This document shows, one piece after another, positions 1 through 43,800 of a stretch of 64,000 nucleotides of DNA. The notes under the pieces were generated by a model. The model saw only the letters and a list, made by a program, of their open reading frames with translations. It had not been told where the DNA came from and searched no databases. A program made the translations under genes and the position numbers. Origin of the DNA: Escherichia coli (lineage in GTDB: Bacteria > Pseudomonadota > Gammaproteobacteria > Enterobacterales > Enterobacteriaceae); the NCBI RefSeq assembly GCF_050920415.1, contig NZ_CP169309.1. The stretch is one strand, 5' to 3'. The number at the start of each line of letters is the position of its first letter. The stretch's first letter is position 1.

Positions 1-1
1 T

Positions 2-850
2 CGATATCTGAAAATACAGGACACACGACTGAAAAATGGGGATATTGCAGCTACAACCCACAAAGAAAAAGCGCGAATGGCTGCATACCTGGTTTCCCGT
101 CTGGGAAACCACCCATTGAAAGAACTGGAAGTAAGAGACTTTGCATTAATACTGGACGAGTGGATGGATAAAGACATGGTCAGCACAGCGAGGGTAAATC
201 GCGGATTATGGGTTGATATTTATAAAGAAGCACAGCATGCAGGGGAAGTTCCTCCTGGATGGAATCCTCCGGAGGCTACCCGTAAACCGATCCCTAAAGT
301 AACCAGATCCAGACTTACCCTGGAAGACTGGCAAAAAATTTACAATGCAACACCAGAAAAACACTTTATCCGTAACGCAATGCTTCTTGCGATTGTCACT
401 GGTCAGCGCCGTGATGACATTTGCCATATGCGTTTTTCAGATGTGTGGAACGAACACTTGCATATCACCCAGGGAAAAACCGGAATGCGTCTGGCGTTAC
501 CGCTTACACTACGCTGTGATGCCATTGGTATAACGTTAAAAGAAGTTATTGATGGATGCCGAGACAGAATATTAAGTCCATATCTAATCCATAGTCGGCA
601 CCAGAAACAACCAAAGCCGATGAGTAAAGACAACCTGAGCGACTACTTTGCCAAAGCACGGGATCTGGCTGGGATAATTCCACCAGCAGGAAAAACCCCG
701 CCAACATTCCATGAACAACGCTCTCTATCAGAACGGCTGTACCGTGCACAAGGTATCGATACAAAAACATTACTGGGACATAAAGTCCAGGCAACTACCG
801 ATCGCTATAACGATACTCGAGGTCAGGAATGGGTTAAGTTGGTTGTTTGA
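2..850 (+). CDS. int: Tyrosine integrase, lambda Int family (C-terminal catalytic portion; 5' end outside window)
   Basis: Frame is open from the window edge to TGA at 848-850; sequence aligns with the lambda Int C-terminal domain (VTGQRxxD, HExRSLSxRLY, LLGH, Y..D.RG.EW motifs including catalytic Arg and Tyr). Confidence 0.9.
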   Translation, partial: RYLKIQDTRLKNGDIAATTHKEKARMAAYLVSRLGNHPLKELEVRDFALILDEWMDKDMVSTARVNRGLWVDIYKEAQHAGEVPPGWNPPEATRKPIPKVTRSRLTLEDWQKIYNATPEKHFIRNAMLLAIVTGQRRDDICHMRFSDVWNEHLHITQGKTGMRLALPLTLRCDAIGITLKEVIDGCRDRILSPYLIHSRHQKQPKPMSKDNLSDYFAKARDLAGIIPPAGKTPPTFHEQRSLSERLYRAQGIDTKTLLGHKVQATTDRYNDTRGQEWVKLVV

Positions 851-938
851 CAAAAATAACCATCCGGGATTATAGTCTGCGCACGCCAGCAAAATCTGGC
901 GTCGGGATTGGCGTCCCGGATAACATCACAACGCATAG

Positions 939-957
939 CCGCGTTTGCGGTTTTTTT
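939..957 (+). terminator. Putative weak intrinsic terminator downstream of int (4-bp GC stem, 7-T run)
   Basis: ccgc-gttt-gcgg followed by ttttttt about 90 nt after the int stop; stem is short so strength is uncertain. Confidence 0.3.
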
Positions 958-1056
958 GCGTTAAGCATTGCCACATTCGCATTATGGTGGGGCGTGCAGG
1001 GGCGGAGAAATCCGCGCCGGGTTTTGTGATGACCGGTTACGCCAACCCTGTACGTC

Positions 1057-1107
1057 TCACCACCTCCCTGATTGGCGTCAGAGGTGGTGATCATCCAATT
1101 AATTGGA
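1057..1107. promoter_or_regulatory. Operator-like symmetric elements upstream of rha: 10-bp inverted repeat with 14-bp spacer plus a 12-bp perfect palindrome overlapping the rha ribosome-binding site
   Basis: TCACCACCTC (1057-1066) and GAGGTGGTGA (1081-1090) are exact reverse complements; CCAATTAATTGG (1095-1106) is a perfect palindrome, with GGAG at 1105-1108. Confidence 0.35.
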
Positions 1108-1117
1108 GTCATCACAT

Positions 1118-1675
1118 ATGAATACAGCTATAACTTTTCCTAACGAGTCACCAAAAGTCTTTTTCAAAGATGGTCGCTTGGTTACCACCTCTCAAGCTGT
1201 TGCCGACTACTTCGATAAACAACATAAACACGTTTTAGCTAAGATTGACGCACTCGACTGCTCGCCCGAATTTACATCAGCCAACTTTTCGTCCGATGTT
1301 CAGACTGTCGAAATTGGCAACGGCGCAGAACGTGAATCACGATGCTACCTGATCACAAAAGACGGCTTCATGTTCCTCGTAATGGGATTTACTGGCAAAA
1401 AAGCAGCCAGACTAAAAGAAGCTTACATTGCAAAATTTAACGCAATGGAGGAAGAACTCCACAAACGCCCACCAGCAGCGCAGCAAACCTCGTCAGAAGA
1501 TGTCGGTTGCTCGTTGTTAATCCATTTCAATAACCACGGTCAGGTTGAGTTTACGGAAAAAGTCCCAGCCGACGCAATGGTGTGCACCCTCGAGCGTTTT
1601 AAGTTTTATCTGGAACAGCAAGGCTGGATAGTTGCCCGTAAGGAGCAACTGTTGGAAAGGTTAATGTCGCTTTAG
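1118..1675 (+). CDS. rha: Rha-family phage regulatory protein (antirepressor-like)
   Basis: 185-aa product with an N-terminal Rha/pRha-like domain (DGRLVTTSQAVADYF..KxHKHVL..I, KDGFMFLVMGFTGKKA); ATG at 1118 has GGAG 9 nt upstream; the ORF-track start at 1103 is TTG. Confidence 0.8.
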   Translation: MNTAITFPNESPKVFFKDGRLVTTSQAVADYFDKQHKHVLAKIDALDCSPEFTSANFSSDVQTVEIGNGAERESRCYLITKDGFMFLVMGFTGKKAARLKEAYIAKFNAMEEELHKRPPAAQQTSSEDVGCSLLIHFNNHGQVEFTEKVPADAMVCTLERFKFYLEQQGWIVARKEQLLERLMSL

Positions 1676-1682
1676 CTAATGC

Positions 1683-1706
1683 AAAAACCCCGGCATAGCC
1701 GGGGTT
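1683..1706 (-). terminator. Intrinsic terminator between convergent rha and the cargo operon (T-run on minus strand)
   Basis: ccccggc-ata-gccgggg hairpin at 1688-1704; A5 on the plus strand gives a U-run after the stem on the minus-strand transcript. Confidence 0.6.
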
Positions 1707-1711
1707 GGGAA

Positions 1712-2209
1712 TTATTTCAGGACAAGCGCATTCAGCGCCTCGATCACCTTTCCAAGATAACTGCCAAAAAGCCACCAGGTTACACCAGCACAGAATGAAA
1801 TCACCGCCAGACTCACGCCGATATAAACCTTTGCTTTCCTAATGGTATCATCTATGTCATCGAGTTTTTCGAGCTTTTTGTCTATTTGAGCTAACTCAGA
1901 CAATTTATGGGAATGCTCAGCAAGTGTCTTATTGATACTGTCCAGTGAGGACATTTTTTGCTCGATACCGGATAACGTTGTTTCCATACGAGTAACTGCG
2001 CATGCGAGAGACGCGTCATTTTTGACATCAGACAGGTGATTGTATACCTGATCAATTCTCTCATTCATACGCCTGTTATCCTCTTTCAGTTCATTGAAAG
2101 AATGGACGATCCATTGATGCTGTGAATGCCTTGACTCACCACCACCAGTAACTTGCGCATCTATATCCGGTGTGCGTTGGTCGCCACTATACGAAGATTC
2201 TCTCCCCAT
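1712..2209 (-). CDS. Hypothetical protein, 165 aa: predicted coiled-coil N-terminal region with a single C-terminal transmembrane helix (tail-anchored topology); function unknown
   Basis: ORF with ATG at 2209 preceded by AAGGGG 8 nt upstream and 2 nt after the upstream gene's stop; heptad-like charged region (KLSELAQIDKKLEKLDDIDDTIRKAK) then hydrophobic stretch VYIGVSLAVISFCAGVTWWLFGSYL; the longer ORF-track start at 2242 is TTG. Confidence 0.6.
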   Translation of the reverse strand: MGRESSYSGDQRTPDIDAQVTGGGESRHSQHQWIVHSFNELKEDNRRMNERIDQVYNHLSDVKNDASLACAVTRMETTLSGIEQKMSSLDSINKTLAEHSHKLSELAQIDKKLEKLDDIDDTIRKAKVYIGVSLAVISFCAGVTWWLFGSYLGKVIEALNALVLK

Positions 2210-2211
2210 AA

Positions 2212-2490
2212 TTATAGCCCCTTTGCACGCAACCACTCCCAAAGCGGCATTTTATGCCTTCCGTAATAAGAACTAACAGGGAGGATGATATATGAGTTCA
2301 AATTTTGTTCATCATTTCCACCATCCAGAACATTAAATAACTCCTGGGCAGTGGCGAGCTGGCTTTCGACGAACCAAAGGCAATCATCAACGTTCATGTG
2401 TTGCTCGGGGAATTTTTCTGCAACGACTTCCCTCATCAGCGCCCTGGTGTCATTATTTTCACTGGTTACTACGATAGCGAATATAGACAT
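2212..2490 (-). CDS. Hypothetical small acidic protein, 92 aa; first gene of the two-gene cargo operon; function unknown
   Basis: ATG at 2490 with AAAGGA upstream; appears translationally coupled to the downstream gene; no family recognised. Confidence 0.55.
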   Translation of the reverse strand: MSIFAIVVTSENNDTRALMREVVAEKFPEQHMNVDDCLWFVESQLATAQELFNVLDGGNDEQNLNSYIILPVSSYYGRHKMPLWEWLRAKGL

Positions 2491-2620
2491 GGGTGTGAGT
2501 CCTTTACGATAGTGCTCAAAAACAGTTCTGCAATAGAAATGTAAATCTGAGAAAACTGTCAGGTAAACCTAATGTTTAGCTATCTTATGTAGTTGACTTG
2601 AGCAAAACAAGAGAAAACAT
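2491..2620 (-). promoter_or_regulatory. Putative promoter region for the cargo operon
   Basis: AT-rich region upstream of the 2490 start; candidate sigma70-like hexamers on the minus strand (TTGCAG, 16 bp, TATCGT; TTTACC, 17 bp, TTACAT); none is a strong consensus match. Confidence 0.25.
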
Positions 2621-2739
2621 CACGAGACAGCAAATTTTGCAAACGAGCACAAAATATAAAAAGCTCCATCTATCAACAAAAGCTCGTCCGCAAACCAAGA
2701 AAAAATGTTGTAAAATGCGCAGCCTGTTTTGGGGAAAAG

Positions 2740-2759
2740 TTTTGGAGAGATTTTGGAGA
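2740..2759 (+). repeat. Direct repeat TTTTGGAGA x2 at 11-bp periodicity in an A-tract-rich segment next to the prophage-host junction
   Basis: Copies at 2740-2748 and 2751-2759. Confidence 0.5.
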
Positions 2760-2796
2760 AAGGAAAAAATTGAATAAATTCAAAATCCTGAAAGTG

Positions 2797-2832
2797 TCCC
2801 GCCTTATGAATAAGAAGGTGGAACTCGAATGA
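2797..2832 (+). other. potB: potB 3'-terminal remnant (about the last 11 codons, SRLMNKKVELE-stop) and probable prophage-chromosome junction (att core vicinity)
   Basis: Frame ending TGA at 2830-2832 in ATGA overlap with potC; C-terminal peptide resembles the PotB C-terminus as recalled; the same frame upstream is lysine-rich, unlike a permease, and stops at 2599-2601. Confidence 0.45.
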
Positions 2833-3623
2833 TCGGTCGACTGCTTCGCGGCGGTTTTATGACCGCTATCTACGCGTACCTGTATATCCCAATCATTATT
2901 TTGATTGTGAACTCTTTCAACAGCTCGCGCTTTGGCATCAACTGGCAGGGTTTTACCACCAAATGGTATAGCCTGCTGATGAACAACGACAGTCTGTTGC
3001 AGGCAGCTCAGCATTCACTGACGATGGCGGTGTTTTCGGCGACGTTTGCTACGCTTATCGGTTCACTGACGGCAGTTGCGTTGTACCGTTATCGCTTTCG
3101 TGGTAAGCCGTTCGTTAGCGGAATGCTGTTTGTGGTGATGATGTCGCCAGATATTGTGATGGCGATTTCTCTGCTGGTGCTGTTTATGCTGCTGGGTATT
3201 CAGCTTGGCTTCTGGTCGCTGCTGTTCTCGCATATCACCTTCTGCCTGCCGTTTGTGGTGGTGACGGTGTATTCGCGCCTGAAAGGTTTTGACGTGCGAA
3301 TGCTGGAAGCGGCGAAAGATCTCGGTGCCAGCGAATTTACCATTCTGCGAAAAATCATTCTGCCACTGGCAATGCCAGCGGTAGCGGCGGGCTGGGTGTT
3401 AAGCTTTACCCTGTCGATGGACGACGTGGTGGTTTCTTCGTTTGTCACCGGGCCGAGTTATGAAATTCTGCCGTTAAAAATTTATTCGATGGTCAAAGTC
3501 GGCGTATCGCCGGAAGTTAACGCGCTGGCAACCATATTACTGGTGCTGTCGCTGGTGATGGTAATTGCCAGCCAGCTTATTGCTCGTGATAAAACGAAAG
3601 GTAACACAGGGGACGTTAAATGA
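2829..3623 (+). CDS. potC: Spermidine/putrescine ABC transporter permease PotC
   Basis: 264-aa polytopic permease matching PotC; ATGA overlap with the potD start. Confidence 0.95.
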   Translation: MIGRLLRGGFMTAIYAYLYIPIIILIVNSFNSSRFGINWQGFTTKWYSLLMNNDSLLQAAQHSLTMAVFSATFATLIGSLTAVALYRYRFRGKPFVSGMLFVVMMSPDIVMAISLLVLFMLLGIQLGFWSLLFSHITFCLPFVVVTVYSRLKGFDVRMLEAAKDLGASEFTILRKIILPLAMPAVAAGWVLSFTLSMDDVVVSSFVTGPSYEILPLKIYSMVKVGVSPEVNALATILLVLSLVMVIASQLIARDKTKGNTGDVK

Positions 3624-4666
3624 AAAAATGGTCACGCCACCTGCTCGCGGCGGGTGCTCTGGCACTGGGCATGAGCGCCGCTCACGCCGATGACAACAAC
3701 ACGCTGTATTTCTACAACTGGACCGAGTACGTGCCGCCAGGACTGCTTGAACAGTTCACCAAAGAAACCGGTATTAAGGTTATCTATTCGACTTACGAGT
3801 CGAACGAAACCATGTACGCGAAGCTGAAAACGTACAAAGACGGTGCCTATGACCTGGTGGTTCCTTCAACCTATTACGTCGATAAAATGCGTAAAGAAGG
3901 GATGATCCAGAAGATCGACAAGTCGAAGTTAAGCAATTTCAGCAACCTCGATCCAGACATGCTCAACAAGCCGTTTGACCCGAATAACGACTATTCCATT
4001 CCGTATATCTGGGGTGCGACGGCGATTGGCGTTAACGGTGATGCGGTGGATCCGAAATCTGTCACCAGCTGGGCCGATCTGTGGAAACCTGAGTACAAAG
4101 GCAGCCTGCTGCTGACCGACGATGCCCGTGAAGTGTTCCAGATGGCGCTGCGCAAACTGGGCTACTCCGGTAACACCACCGATCCGAAAGAGATTGAAGC
4201 TGCGTATAACGAGCTGAAAAAACTGATGCCAAACGTAGCGGCGTTTAACTCCGATAACCCAGCTAACCCGTACATGGAAGGCGAAGTTAACCTCGGCATG
4301 ATCTGGAACGGTTCCGCTTTCGTTGCACGCCAGGCGGGTACGCCAATTGACGTGGTATGGCCGAAAGAAGGCGGCATTTTCTGGATGGACAGCCTGGCGA
4401 TCCCGGCAAATGCCAAAAACAAAGAGGGCGCGCTGAAATTGATCAACTTCCTGCTGCGCCCGGATGTGGCAAAACAGGTTGCTGAAACTATCGGTTATCC
4501 AACGCCAAACCTCGCCGCGCGTAAGCTGTTAAGCCCGGAAATAGCGGACGACAAGACGCTCTACCCGGATGCTGAAACCATTAAAAATGGCGAATGGCAG
4601 AATGACGTTGGCGCAGCCAGCAGCATTTATGAAGAGTATTATCAGAAGCTGAAAGCAGGACGTTAA
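3620..4666 (+). CDS. potD: Spermidine/putrescine ABC transporter periplasmic binding protein PotD
   Basis: 348-aa product with signal peptide; matches PotD. Confidence 0.95.
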   Translation: MKKWSRHLLAAGALALGMSAAHADDNNTLYFYNWTEYVPPGLLEQFTKETGIKVIYSTYESNETMYAKLKTYKDGAYDLVVPSTYYVDKMRKEGMIQKIDKSKLSNFSNLDPDMLNKPFDPNNDYSIPYIWGATAIGVNGDAVDPKSVTSWADLWKPEYKGSLLLTDDAREVFQMALRKLGYSGNTTDPKEIEAAYNELKKLMPNVAAFNSDNPANPYMEGEVNLGMIWNGSAFVARQAGTPIDVVWPKEGGIFWMDSLAIPANAKNKEGALKLINFLLRPDVAKQVAETIGYPTPNLAARKLLSPEIADDKTLYPDAETIKNGEWQNDVGAASSIYEEYYQKLKAGR

Positions 4667-4674
4667 TTCAGCAA

Positions 4675-4704
4675 GCGGGCGGTGGTATTACCGCCCGTTT
4701 TTTC
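4675..4704 (+). terminator. Intrinsic terminator after potD
   Basis: gcgggcgg...ccgcccg hairpin followed by a T6 run. Confidence 0.7.
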
Positions 4705-4841
4705 ATTTAGCAAGGATGTGGCTAATGTTGCTGTTATGGACGAGTAAACGCTAAAAGAGGCAGTAAATATGCCAGATGCGGCGTCAACGACTTCTCTGGT
4801 CTACGACACCCGCAAATTCAATTCATTGCGCCCCATCGCAG

Positions 4842-4866
4842 GCCTGATAAGCGTAGCGCATCAGGC
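4842..4866. repeat. REP (repetitive extragenic palindrome) element
   Basis: GCCTGATAAGCGTAGCGCATCAGGC palindrome typical of enterobacterial REP. Confidence 0.7.
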
Positions 4867-4879
4867 AATGCTTCCTGCT

Positions 4880-5701
4880 TTATAAGCCCTTCAGCAACTT
4901 TTCAACAAACTCTGGCACCACCTGGCTTGCCGGGCCGTAATATTTCTCGGCAAATTCATTACCGACCTGACTCGGTTCAAGATTGAGTTCCACAGTGTGC
5001 GCACCATGCAGTTTCGCTTCGTGAACAAATCCAGCCGCCGGATAAACATGCCCGGAAGTACCAATGGCAATGAAAATATCGGCCATCGACAACGCCATAT
5101 AAATTTCATCCATGCCGAGTGGCATTTCGCCAAACCAAACGACGTGCGGGCGCAAGGGTGCCGGGAACTGGCAACAATGGCATTTATCTTCTGGCGTAAC
5201 GTCTCCGGTCCAGTCGAGAATCTGACCACTTTGCGAACAGCGAACTTTCAGCAATTCCCCATGCATATGAATCACATTGGTATTACCTGCGCGTTCGTGC
5301 AGATTGTCGATATTCTGCGTCACCAGCAAAAAGCGATCGCCGAGAGCATCTTGCAGTTTAGCCAGCGCAAGATGCGCGGCGTTAGGCTGAATTTCTGGCT
5401 GCTGCAGCTGTCGACGGCGGGCGTTATAAAACGCTTGTACCAGTTCAGGATCGCGATCGAAACCTTCCGGCGTTGCCACATCTTCAACCCGATGTTCTTC
5501 CCACAGGCCATCTGCGGCGCGAAAGGTACGAATACCTGATTCCGCAGAAATACCTGCCCCAGTCAGTACGAGTACTCTTGGTTTTTCCATTGCTTCCGGC
5601 ACCACTTTATCTCTGAAAAAAATACGCTGACGCAAACGCTCGCGCAGGCGGCGTTTATTTTTACGAAAACGACTTAACCGATGACCCCGACGCGACAGCA
5701 T
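4880..5701 (-). CDS. cobB: NAD-dependent protein deacylase CobB (sirtuin), long isoform with Arg-rich N-terminal extension
   Basis: 273-aa product; [10 protein letters not shown] and sirtuin Zn-binding Cys motifs; ends KGL-stop. Confidence 0.93.
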
Positions 5702-5716
5702 AGCAACCTCTGTTGT

Positions 5717-6628
5717 TTAATCGGTTAGATGTAGGAAAGCCGCACCACGCATTCCTCCCGCATCACCGTGGCGCGCGCGTTCAATGCGCGGAACACGAGC
5801 TACAGGTAAGAGATGACGAGGCAGCCTGTCCGCCAGTTGCGTTGTGATTGCCGGGAAATTCGATAAGCCACCACCAATGACGACCAGGTCAGGGTCAACA
5901 ATGGTCAGGATATTTCCCAGACAAACCGCTAATAAATCCAGATAACGCTCAACGTGCGCCCTTGCCTGCTCATCGCCTTGATCATAAAGCGCAATAATTT
6001 CGGGAGCCTGCAACGGTTGATGATAATAGTGTTGATACAGCCACGCAAAACCGCGACCAGACAGATAATTTTCAATGCAGCCATGCTGACCACAGCCGCA
6101 GCGGCGTAATGGGAAATCCAGCCCCATCATGGTTAACGCATCAACCGGCAGACGCATATGGCCAAACTCGCCGGTAATATAGCTTTTACCGGTAATTGGT
6201 TTACCGTTGAAAATCAGCCCGCCGCCAACGCCGGTGCCGAGAATCAACCCCATCACCAGTGGATATTGAGTAAATTCATCATCCCAGGCTTCTGAAAGGG
6301 CAAAACAGTTGGCATCGTTATCAAGGCGGACATCGCGATCAAGACGTACGCTCAGGTCGGCACGCAGCGATTTACCGCTGGCAGCGGGGACATTGGCGGC
6401 ATACAGCGTACCATCTTCTGTTTCCGGCATTCCCGGAATACCGATGCCTACAGAACCTTTACAGCCAAAACGCTTATCGGCTTCAGCCACCAGCTCGCAC
6501 ACTGCATCTAAAAATGCGTCATAGCTGTCACGCGGTGTCGGCACCCGCTTTTCCCACTGCAACTGCCGACCGCTATCAAACACGCCAAGCGCAATTTTTG
6601 TTCCACCAATATCAAACCCGTAATACAT
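5717..6628 (-). CDS. nagK: N-acetyl-D-glucosamine kinase
   Basis: 303-aa ROK-family kinase starting [11 protein letters not shown]; ATG at 6628 with AAGGAG upstream; ORF-track start is an upstream extension. Confidence 0.93.
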
Positions 6629-40878: not shown

Positions 40879-43800
40879 ATGAAAAGAATGTTAATCAACG
40901 CAACTCAGCAGGAAGAGTTGCGCGTTGCCCTTGTAGATGGGCAGCGTCTGTATGACCTGGATATCGAAAGTCCAGGGCACGAACAGAAAAAGGCAAACAT
41001 CTACAAAGGTAAAATCACCCGCATTGAACCGAGTCTGGAAGCTGCTTTTGTTGATTACGGCGCTGAACGTCACGGTTTCCTCCCACTTAAAGAAATTGCC
41101 CGCGAATATTTCCCTGCTAACTACAGTGCTCATGGCCGTCCCAACATTAAAGATGTGTTGCGTGAAGGTCAGGAAGTTATTGTTCAGATTGATAAAGAAG
41201 AGCGCGGTAACAAAGGCGCAGCACTGACCACCTTTATCAGCCTGGCAGGTAGCTATCTGGTTCTGATGCCAAACAACCCGCGCGCGGGTGGTATTTCTCG
41301 CCGTATTGAAGGCGACGACCGTACCGAATTAAAAGAAGCACTGGCAAGCCTTGAACTGCCGGAAGGCATGGGGCTTATCGTGCGCACCGCTGGCGTCGGC
41401 AAATCTGCAGAGGCGCTGCAATGGGATTTAAGCTTCCGCCTGAAACACTGGGAAGCTATTAAAAAAGCCGCTGAAAGCCGCCCTGCCCCGTTCCTGATCC
41501 ATCAGGAGAGCAACGTAATCGTTCGCGCATTCCGCGATTACTTACGTCAGGACATCGGCGAAATCCTTATCGATAACCCAAAAGTGCTCGAACTGGCGCG
41601 TCAGCATATCGCTGCATTAGGTCGCCCGGATTTCAGCAGCAAAATCAAGCTGTACACTGGTGAAATTCCGCTGTTCAGCCACTACCAGATCGAGTCGCAG
41701 ATCGAATCCGCCTTCCAGCGTGAAGTCCGTCTGCCGTCTGGTGGTTCTATTGTTATCGACAGCACTGAAGCGTTAACTGCCATCGATATCAACTCCGCAC
41801 GCGCGACCCGCGGCGGCGATATCGAAGAAACCGCGTTTAACACCAACCTCGAAGCTGCCGATGAGATTGCTCGTCAGCTGCGCCTGCGTGACCTCGGCGG
41901 CCTGATTGTTATCGACTTCATTGACATGACGCCAGTCCGCCACCAGCGTGCGGTAGAAAACCGTCTGCGTGAAGCGGTGCGTCAGGACCGTGCACGTATT
42001 CAAATCAGCCATATTTCTCGCTTTGGTCTGCTGGAAATGTCCCGTCAGCGGCTGAGTCCATCGCTGGGTGAATCCAGCCATCACGTCTGCCCGCGCTGCT
42101 CCGGTACCGGCACCGTGCGTGACAACGAATCCCTGTCGCTCTCTATTCTGCGTCTGATTGAAGAAGAAGCGCTGAAAGAGAACACCCAGGAAGTCCATGC
42201 CATTGTTCCTGTGCCAATCGCTTCTTACCTGCTGAACGAAAAACGCTCTGCGGTAAATGCCATTGAAACTCGTCAGGACGGCGTGCGCTGTGTGATTGTG
42301 CCAAACGATCAGATGGAAACCCCGCACTACCATGTGCTGCGCGTACGCAAAGGGGAAGAAACCCCAACCTTAAGCTACATGCTGCCGAAACTGCATGAAG
42401 AAGCGATGGCGCTGCCGTCTGAAGAAGAGTTCGCTGAACGTAAGCGTCCGGAACAACCTGCGCTGGCAACGTTTGCCATGCCGGATGTGCCGCCAGCGCC
42501 AACGCCAGCTGAACCTGCCGCGCCTGTCGCAGCCCCAGCACCTAAAGCTGCATCAACAACACCAGCAGCTCCTGCACAACCAGGGCTGTTAAGCCGCTTC
42601 TTCGGCGCACTGAAAGCGCTGTTCAGCGGTGGTGAAGAAACCAAACCGACCGAGCAACCGGCACCGAAAACTGAAACGAAACCGGAACGTCAACAGGACC
42701 GCCGTAAGCCACGTCAGAACAACCGTCGTGACCGAAATGAACGCCGCGACACACGTAGCGAACGTAATGAAGGCAGCGATAATCGCGAAGAAAACCGCCG
42801 TAATCGTCGCCAGGCACAGCAGCAGACTGCCGAGACGCGTGAGAGCCGTCAGCAGGCTGAGGTAACGGAAAAAGCGCGTACCACCGACGAGCAGCAAGCG
42901 CCGCGTCGTGAACGTAGCCGCCGCCGTAATGATGATAAACGTCAGGCGCAACAAGAAGCGAAAGCGCTAAATGTTGAAGAGCAATCTGTTCAGGAAACCG
43001 AACAGGAAGAACGTGTACGTCCGGTTCAGCCGCGTCGTAAACAGCGCCAGCTGAATCAGAAAGTGCGTTACGAGCAAAGCGTAGCCGAAGAAACGGTAGC
43101 CGCACCAGTGGTTGAAGAAACTGCCGCTGCCGAAACCATCGTTCAGGAAGTGCCTGCTCCGCGTACAGAACTGGCGAAAGTCCCGCTGCCAGTCGTAGCG
43201 CAAACTGCGCCGGAACAGCAGGAAGAGAACAATGCTGATAACCGTGATAACGGTGGCATGCCGCGTCGCTCTCGCCGCTCGCCTCGTCACCTGCGCGTAA
43301 GTGGTCAGCGTCGTCGTCGCTATCGTGACGAGCGTTACCCGACCCAGTCGCCAATGCCGTTAACCGTAGCGTGCGCGTCTCCGGAACTGGCCTCTGGCAA
43401 AGTCTGGATCCGCTATCCGATTGTACGTCCGCAAGATGTACAGGTTGAAGAGCAGCGCGAACAGGAAGAAGTACAAGTGCAACCGATGGTGACTGAGGTC
43501 CCTGTCGCCGCCGCTGTCGAACCGGTTGTTAGCGCACCGATTGTTGAAGAAGTGGCTGAAGTCGTAGAAGCCCCCGTTCAGGTTACCGAACCGCAACCGG
43601 AAGTGGTTGAAACGACGCATCCTGAAGTGATTGCCGCCGCGGTAACTGAACAGCCGCAGGTGATTACCGAGTCTGATGTTGCCGTAGCCCAGGAAGTTGC
43701 AGAACACGCAGAACCGGTGGTTGAACCGCAGGAAGAGACGGCTGATATTGAAGAAGTTGCCGAAACTGCTGAGGTTGTGGTTGCTGAGCCTGAAGTTGTT

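Follow-up and report, generated by a model that had tools for sequence, protein, structure and literature searches.

The boundary between potB and potC is a well-documented and very common integration site for prophages in Escherichia coli. In Shiga toxin-producing E. coli (STEC) strains that are negative for the locus of enterocyte effacement (LEE), potC is an insertion site of Shiga toxin (Stx) phages (PMC8065619). The O157:H7 serotype carries 'Prophage 5 (potC)' (PMC10925052), its clade 8 has the element named PP_potB (PMC9997748), PP_potB is also described in O145:H28 (PMC7067040), and prophage J of O104:H4 lies at 'potB/potC' (PMC3486847). For O157:H7, reports also describe compound prophages and the insertion of a second prophage here (PMC10925052, PMC9997748). 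Here, we analyze a window of 64,000 nucleotides from an E. coli chromosome (contig NZ_CP169309.1), in which positions 1–2820 very probably belong to a lambdoid prophage, forming the end next to its integrase gene; the phage has recombined into the last codons of potB. A preliminary description of the same DNA had named potC as a reported prophage integration site, which the publications above bear out, and the window element is a further instance of this already known site. The result has little importance except for annotation. It places the junction exactly, and it explains the distance between int and the attachment site without a second element.

In phage lambda, xis lies upstream of int, and int reads toward the attachment site. 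The window begins inside a gene of this type, in a frame that is open from base 2 and ends at a stop codon at 848–850 on the plus strand. This frame (2..850) corresponds to the 3′ three-quarters (codons 91–372) of a lambda-type tyrosine integrase gene whose 5′ end lies to the left of the window, and it is 98% identical to residues 91–372 of a 372-residue 'phage integrase Arm DNA-binding domain-containing protein'. The product matches PHROG integrase families as well as lambda Int structures (phmmer against PDB 1z19, E = 4.7e-48), with the catalytic R, K, H-x-x-R, H and Y all aligned to those of lambda Int (VTGQR, KTG, HExR, GHK and the final Y). On these alignments, the window integrase is a homologue of lambda Int, as the preliminary description had proposed for a gene reading rightwards to 850. 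The arm-binding N-terminus, encoded by the first 90 codons, falls outside the window; in metagenome contigs of the same layout, PF09003 (Arm-DNA-bind_1) and Phage_integrase are found on the same gene. The position corresponding to xis also lies outside the window, and in all of the relatives that we examined xis is directly 5′ of int.

The other side of the junction was defined by comparison with K-12, in which potB directly abuts potC, in agreement with the earlier description of this operon. Homology between the window and K-12 begins only at TGAATAAGAAGG, and from TGAATAAGAAGGTG (2807) rightwards the two are identical. We aligned K-12 attB, the window, and the loci of two relatives, strains CUVET18-1475 and MFDS1022581. 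The sole stretch common to the empty site and to both junctions of each relative is the 14-bp sequence TGAATAAGAAGGTG (2807..2820), which we take as the core and which would be shared by attP. On the potB side, the relatives read ...SRLL-NKKV and then continue into phage DNA, as AGCGAATTAGATGATTAA or AGCGAAATAGGTGATTAA. Thus, the att duplication anticipated for the other end of the element is present in both relatives. In the lambda convention, the junction in the window would be attL, with host DNA, core, and the P′ arm adjoining int. The GC content is ~0.50–0.53 in potCD and drops to 0.38–0.47 leftwards. Positions 1–6000 contain no tRNA or tmRNA gene that might have served as the integration target.

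The core encodes the potB codons N-K-K-V and also carries the potC Shine-Dalgarno sequence (AAGGTGG), with the potC start codon just past it. To the right of the core, positions 2821..2832 (plus strand) hold the last three codons and stop of the chromosomal potB (ELE-stop), identical to K-12 and separated from the body of the gene. Translation of 2797–2832 gives SRLMNKKVELE-stop, and the stop overlaps the potC start codon as ATGA. The preliminary description read this peptide as the final ~11 codons of potB and placed the junction at about 2790–2810. The peptide, the overlap, and a junction in this region all stand, but the core lies slightly further right than was proposed, and not all of the peptide belongs to potB. 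Because the core is 2807–2820, the residues SRLM (2797–2808) are, on this alignment, encoded by phage arm that merely resembles the SRLL of K-12 PotB, NKKV falls within the shared core, and ELE-stop is the only unambiguous host potB DNA in the window.

Both potC (2829..3623, plus strand), whose product is identical to K-12 PotC over 264 of 264 residues, and potD (3620..4666, plus strand; from the list of open reading frames (ORFs) and the annotation of relatives) are physically intact on the window side. No potB body is found upstream of potC within the window. At the far junction in the two relatives, potB is annotated as a full-length gene of 864 nt in which the last three codons (ELE) are swapped for SELDD or SEIGD. 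The earlier proposal that the main potB body sits at the far end of the element therefore holds in these strains, with the refinement that the gene there is full length and not truncated. Since the potC Shine-Dalgarno sequence lies in the core and the phage supplies the final potB codons, potB and potC both remain able to encode their proteins in the divided operon. The PotB of the relatives' lysogens is two residues longer, with an altered tail (CUVET18-1475 locus, ~42960–43000; MFDS1022581 locus, ~110–150).

The frame of the PotB-like tail is lysine-rich further upstream and open back to a TGA at 2599–2601, matching the stop at 2599 that had been noted before. We considered and rejected the idea that this long ORF (open over 2602–2832, 77 codons) is a functional potB surrogate or a coupling ORF. 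Its earliest possible start is fewer than 30 codons from its end, and in the MFDS1022581 arm, read by hand, small indels put a stop in the PotB frame ~36 codons upstream. We treat the open frame as a probable product of chance in A-rich DNA, and one that is not conserved.

Between the core and the rest of the element lies the int-proximal phage attachment arm (2696..2806; the P′ arm in lambda terms). A pattern search revealed three tandem TTTTGGRGA repeats in this arm (2727–2735, 2740–2748 and 2751–2759), which are candidate arm-type Int sites. These three copies, 48–80 bp from the core, are the only matches to the pattern in the entire window. The far arm of each relative has one more copy in the same orientation, ~120–130 bp past the core, although the intervening sequence differs. 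With three tandem repeats ~50–80 bp from the core on the int side and a further copy in the opposite arm, the pattern resembles that of lambda, and it fits a reading of the TTTTGGRGA repeats as arm-type Int sites arranged like P′1–P′3. In contrast to lambda, the core and host target differ, being the 3′ end of potB here and the gal-bio intergenic site in lambda. The TTTTGGRGA repeat also differs from the lambda arm consensus. A related int in the Klebsiella phage ST13-OXA48phi12.4 (MK422450.1; compared locus L016, 2501–2550) is likewise followed, at 57–106 bp, by a cluster of three repeats, and this phage joins its host at dcp instead of potB. The arm sites appear to be shared between the E. 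coli and Klebsiella elements while the core target differs.

What the rest of the element may look like can be judged from its relatives. CUVET18-1475 has the same order of int, cargo (the block between int and the arm described below) and potC at 94–96% identity, as part of a single lambdoid prophage of ~42 kb that runs through xis, exonuclease, dicB, repressor and cro, replication, Q, lysis, terminase, head and tail genes, and then reaches potB-potA. In MFDS1022581, a 49-kb Stx2g-converting lambdoid prophage lies between potB and potC, ending with xis, int and then potC; potA and potB are 42–49 kb away, at the other junction, in these two strains. Metagenome contigs show the same layout as the window. 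Like the potB/potC prophages of O157:H7, O145:H28, O104:H4, LEE-negative STEC and MFDS1022581, the window element has the 14-bp core, the int-proximal arm and a 98%-identical integrase, with xis-int reading toward potC and potAB split from potCD; unlike them, it adds an 1841-bp cargo between int and arm. Of 5426 complete E. coli genomes, 1634 have the 111-bp arm (2696–2806). The int-cargo-potC arrangement covers at least 80% of a query spanning 1–3400 in only two complete genomes. The only other complete genome with the cargo arrangement besides CUVET18-1475, strain SC516 (NZ_CP025048.1), has an IS1A element in the region matching the query.

Several points weigh against this reconstruction of the locus. 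The other junction of the element is outside the window, and the size, completeness and potB state given for it are drawn from the relatives. No free-phage genome with a contiguous attP is found among deposited phage genomes, where the two matching E. coli 'phage' records are prophage-derived and include potC, and the core is deduced from comparison of the junctions with the empty site only. Int binding at the TTTTGGRGA repeats is a candidate assignment from a sequence pattern. Finally, no convincing sigma-70 promoter was found for the separated potCD.

We consider it unlikely, though not negligibly so, that the prophage has decayed beyond induction and that only its int end survives in good condition. 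Only 2.8 kb of the element can be seen, and its relatives show signs of damage: in the Stx2g prophage of MFDS1022581, the terminase, tape-measure and tail-fibre genes are frameshifted and the J gene holds an IS2, CUVET18-1475 carries an IS110-family transposase among its tail genes, and SC516 has an IS1 in the cargo. Against decay, none of the 282 visible int codons is disrupted, they encode a sequence 98% identical to that of full-length integrases, and no interruption is seen in the arm, the core or either cargo module. In any case, decay would bear on the completeness of the prophage only and would leave the identity of the junction unchanged.

The potB/potC prophage in the window differs from its relatives, and from lambda, in the spacing between int and the host genes. 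In cargo-less relatives, potC starts 166 bp past the int stop, whereas in the window the distance is 1.98 kb. When the int-potC spacer of MFDS1022581 was compared with the window by BLAST, homology stopped at 854 and restarted at 2696. The window thus holds an 1841-bp mosaic cargo (moron) block (855..2695) in place of 27 bp of the cargo-less relatives, and the int stop lies 1.95 kb from the core because this block is inserted just after it. The preliminary description had referred to a 'cargo operon'; cargo is indeed present between int and potC, but it consists of two unrelated modules on opposite strands, and the two halves differ in their distribution among E. coli genomes. The cargo lies outside the ~110-bp att arm, and therefore no tandem or composite element is needed to account for the distance between int and core. 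Integration and excision would be unaffected by the cargo.

The 1.95-kb gap had earlier led to the caution that a composite or tandem element was not excluded. In such an array at potB/potC, 855–2695 would be left over from a second element. There is precedent in O157:H7, where compound and second prophages occur at this very locus (PMC10925052, PMC9997748), the left part of the window element is out of view, and the cargo is mosaic. However, a second int, att core or arm is absent from the cargo; nothing separates the arm from the core, and the cargo stands exactly in place of 27 bp immediately after the int stop. CUVET18-1475 has the same cargo within a single 42-kb prophage, and both cargo modules occur as inserts in single prophages elsewhere. 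We therefore judge an array to be very improbable as an account of 855–2695: the gap is explained by a moron-type insert, and a compound arrangement is conceivable in the unseen left part. The last alternative, that 1–2806 is ancestral chromosome lost from K-12 and involves no phage insertion, is already refuted, as nothing was found in its favor, int is accompanied on its left by xis, exo and a full lambdoid genome in relatives, different prophages occupy the same 14-bp core, the arm is absent from ~70% of complete genomes, and GC content drops across the region.

The int-adjacent module of the cargo has close counterparts in other phages. The immI locus of phage P1 follows the same control logic as the isrK-orf45-anrP locus of the Gifsy-1 prophage. 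In Gifsy-1, the short IsrK RNA turns on translation of a read-through mRNA and, hence, of the antirepressor-like protein AnrP (PMC4825925). The corresponding features in the window are all on the plus strand. A promoter-like TTGACA-18-TATAGT (11/12 matches to the consensus, which is the sole basis for the assignment; 847..876) lies over the int stop codon and is a candidate promoter for an IsrK/c4-rha transcript. It is followed by a c4 a1/b1 target element at 870–922 (Rfam RF03163, 51.9 bits; gathering threshold 46.7), an IsrK-like Hfq-binding small RNA (sRNA) at 883–957 (RF01394, 76.9 bits; gathering threshold 50), and a C4-type antisense RNA at 980..1067 (RF01695, 75.9 bits; gathering threshold 45). 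In a terminator scan, the IsrK-like RNA ended in a hairpin and T-run (937–952). A 45-codon leader ORF (984..1121) is equivalent to orf45, and its stop codon overlaps the rha ATG (ATGA); the name given to its equivalent by the Prokaryotic Genome Annotation Pipeline (PGAP) is 'ash family protein'. The rha gene itself (1118..1675) encodes a Rha-family, antirepressor-like protein of 185 residues, the AnrP equivalent, which matches Pfam Phage_pRha (E = 1.7e-26), TIGR02681 (81 bits against a cutoff of 46) and the PHROG Rha-like and anti-repressor families. The preliminary description was correct that rha follows int, and the gene can now be placed within a c4/IsrK module.

This module resembles the Gifsy-1 locus in that the isrK, c4-a1b1 and C4 matches are all above the Rfam gathering thresholds and occur in the same order, and in that a short sRNA with its own terminator precedes a 45-codon ORF, which overlaps through its stop codon with the start of a Rha/antirepressor-like gene. 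As in the c4 systems of P1 immI and Gifsy-1, the two loops of the C4 RNA are complementary to one pair of targets upstream and another pair downstream. The loop UGUGAUGAC (1025–1033) is complementary to 1108–1116, between GGAG and the rha ATG at 1118, so that the downstream pairing reaches between the rha Shine-Dalgarno sequence and start codon. The loop ACGCCAA (1039–1045) is complementary to both 1072–1078 and 908–914, and the first loop, over 1024–1031, also pairs with 924–931. These complements are exact and, at 7–9 nt, short. In such a scheme, the IsrK/c4 antisense-RNA gate would control the Rha-type antirepressor, with c4 loops able to pair with the rha ribosome-binding region, and the window 'rha' is most likely, by analogy with these systems, an RNA-gated regulator of the antirepressor type. 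Unlike the Gifsy-1 locus, the window module adjoins int and att and not a Q-like antiterminator gene, and unlike the c4-icd-ant operon of P1 immI it has no icd gene. A query with the cargo found matches in 1182 of 5426 complete genomes; among the matches listed outside the two close relatives, it was the c4/IsrK-rha module that matched, at ~91–92% identity.

A GC-rich hairpin (1686..1706), terminator-like for the minus strand, separates rha from the second cargo module, a convergent cassette of two minus-strand genes. The upstream gene (2212..2490) encodes a 92-residue protein with a ferredoxin-like fold, and its partner, after a gap of 2 nt, encodes a 165-residue protein (1712..2209, in an ORF open up to 2242). 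In the AlphaFold model of the latter (pLDDT, the predicted local distance difference test score, 69.6), a disordered N-terminus and a short helix precede one very long helix, the putative coiled coil; a hydrophobic helix at the C-terminus was read from the alignment of homologues. Neither protein matched a specific Pfam, PHROG, NCBIfam or PADLOC family, and the 165-residue protein had only generic coiled-coil matches. Among the PADLOC defense models, these were weak hits to SMC-like regions (E = 1e-4 or worse), and the 92-residue protein had none. No match to either protein was found in deposited phages by tblastn, and fold searches returned only uncharacterized proteins and generic ferredoxin-like folds. 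For the 92-residue protein, the latter include BPSL1038 of Burkholderia pseudomallei (PDB 7vxr), Cas2 and GhoS, but identity is at most 11% and the fold is very common, and no transfer of function is justified.

The 165-residue protein belongs to a family of 19 homologue clusters, and those with a named host are all from Enterobacterales (E. coli, Klebsiella, Enterobacter and Serratia). In three distant relatives, the homologue is again preceded by a homologous gene of 86–93 residues. Such pairs (86–93 plus 163–165 residues) are found in Enterobacter and Serratia prophages (compared loci L006, 5717–6498; L008, 5737–6495; L010, 5741–6492). Three different prophage positions are occupied by the pair: the stretch separating int from the host junction, the edge of a prophage beside fis, and the nin region. 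From this distribution, we read the cassette, which is rare, as a probable mobile prophage moron whose two genes are kept together. It might serve in superinfection exclusion or abortive infection, or form a toxin-antitoxin pair. Its function is one of two minor points of possible novelty that could merit experiments; the other is the transcription of potCD in the ~30% of E. coli strains with a prophage at this site. Taken together, the proposals that the cassette, with its 165-residue protein as a tail-anchored coiled coil, is an undescribed two-gene module that moves among sites in Escherichia, Enterobacter and Serratia prophages and, separately, that the conserved phage arm is the potCD promoter are tentative, and we would sooner doubt them than rely on them.

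Judging from the prophages of the relatives, the potA promoter now lies 40–50 kb from potCD. In K-12, an internal RpoD promoter has also been reported in potABCD, upstream of potB (PMC3946193); we rejected it as a source of potCD transcripts because it stays with potAB on the far side and so is of no help. Any transcription that continues from int or from IsrK-rha would need to cross the hairpin at 1686–1706 and the convergent two-gene cassette. We scanned for sigma-70 promoters closer to potC (2484–2828) and obtained weak candidates only, none of which we accept: a 9/12 match at 2484–2513, a TAAAAT at 2711 whose -35 element is poor, and an 8/12 match at 2743–2770. The potCD genes would then be transcribed from within or to the right of the cargo, or else be poorly expressed. 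The preliminary description had inferred that potCD expression now depends on a phage-borne or read-through promoter, which is a hypothesis here. Such a promoter could lie in the conserved phage arm; if this were true, ~30% of E. coli strains would run polyamine uptake under phage-borne control.

To the right of the junction the window is E. coli chromosome, and positions 2833–24000 are 100.0% identical to strain MFDS1022581. The Stx2g prophage of this strain (NZ_CP169399.1; compared locus L012, 29546–30787) occupies the potB/potC site with a 98%-identical integrase. As the closest chromosome thus has an Stx2g phage at the same site, the unseen part of the window element merits a check for stx in surveillance; the remainder of the window prophage, including any stx genes, lies outside the window. 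Further right, the Rfam matches are to common elements of the core genome. Downstream of potD, cobB follows directly (4667–4879); in K-12 and CUVET18-1475 the two genes are separated by the ymfA-ycfZ pair, which is missing both here and in MFDS1022581.

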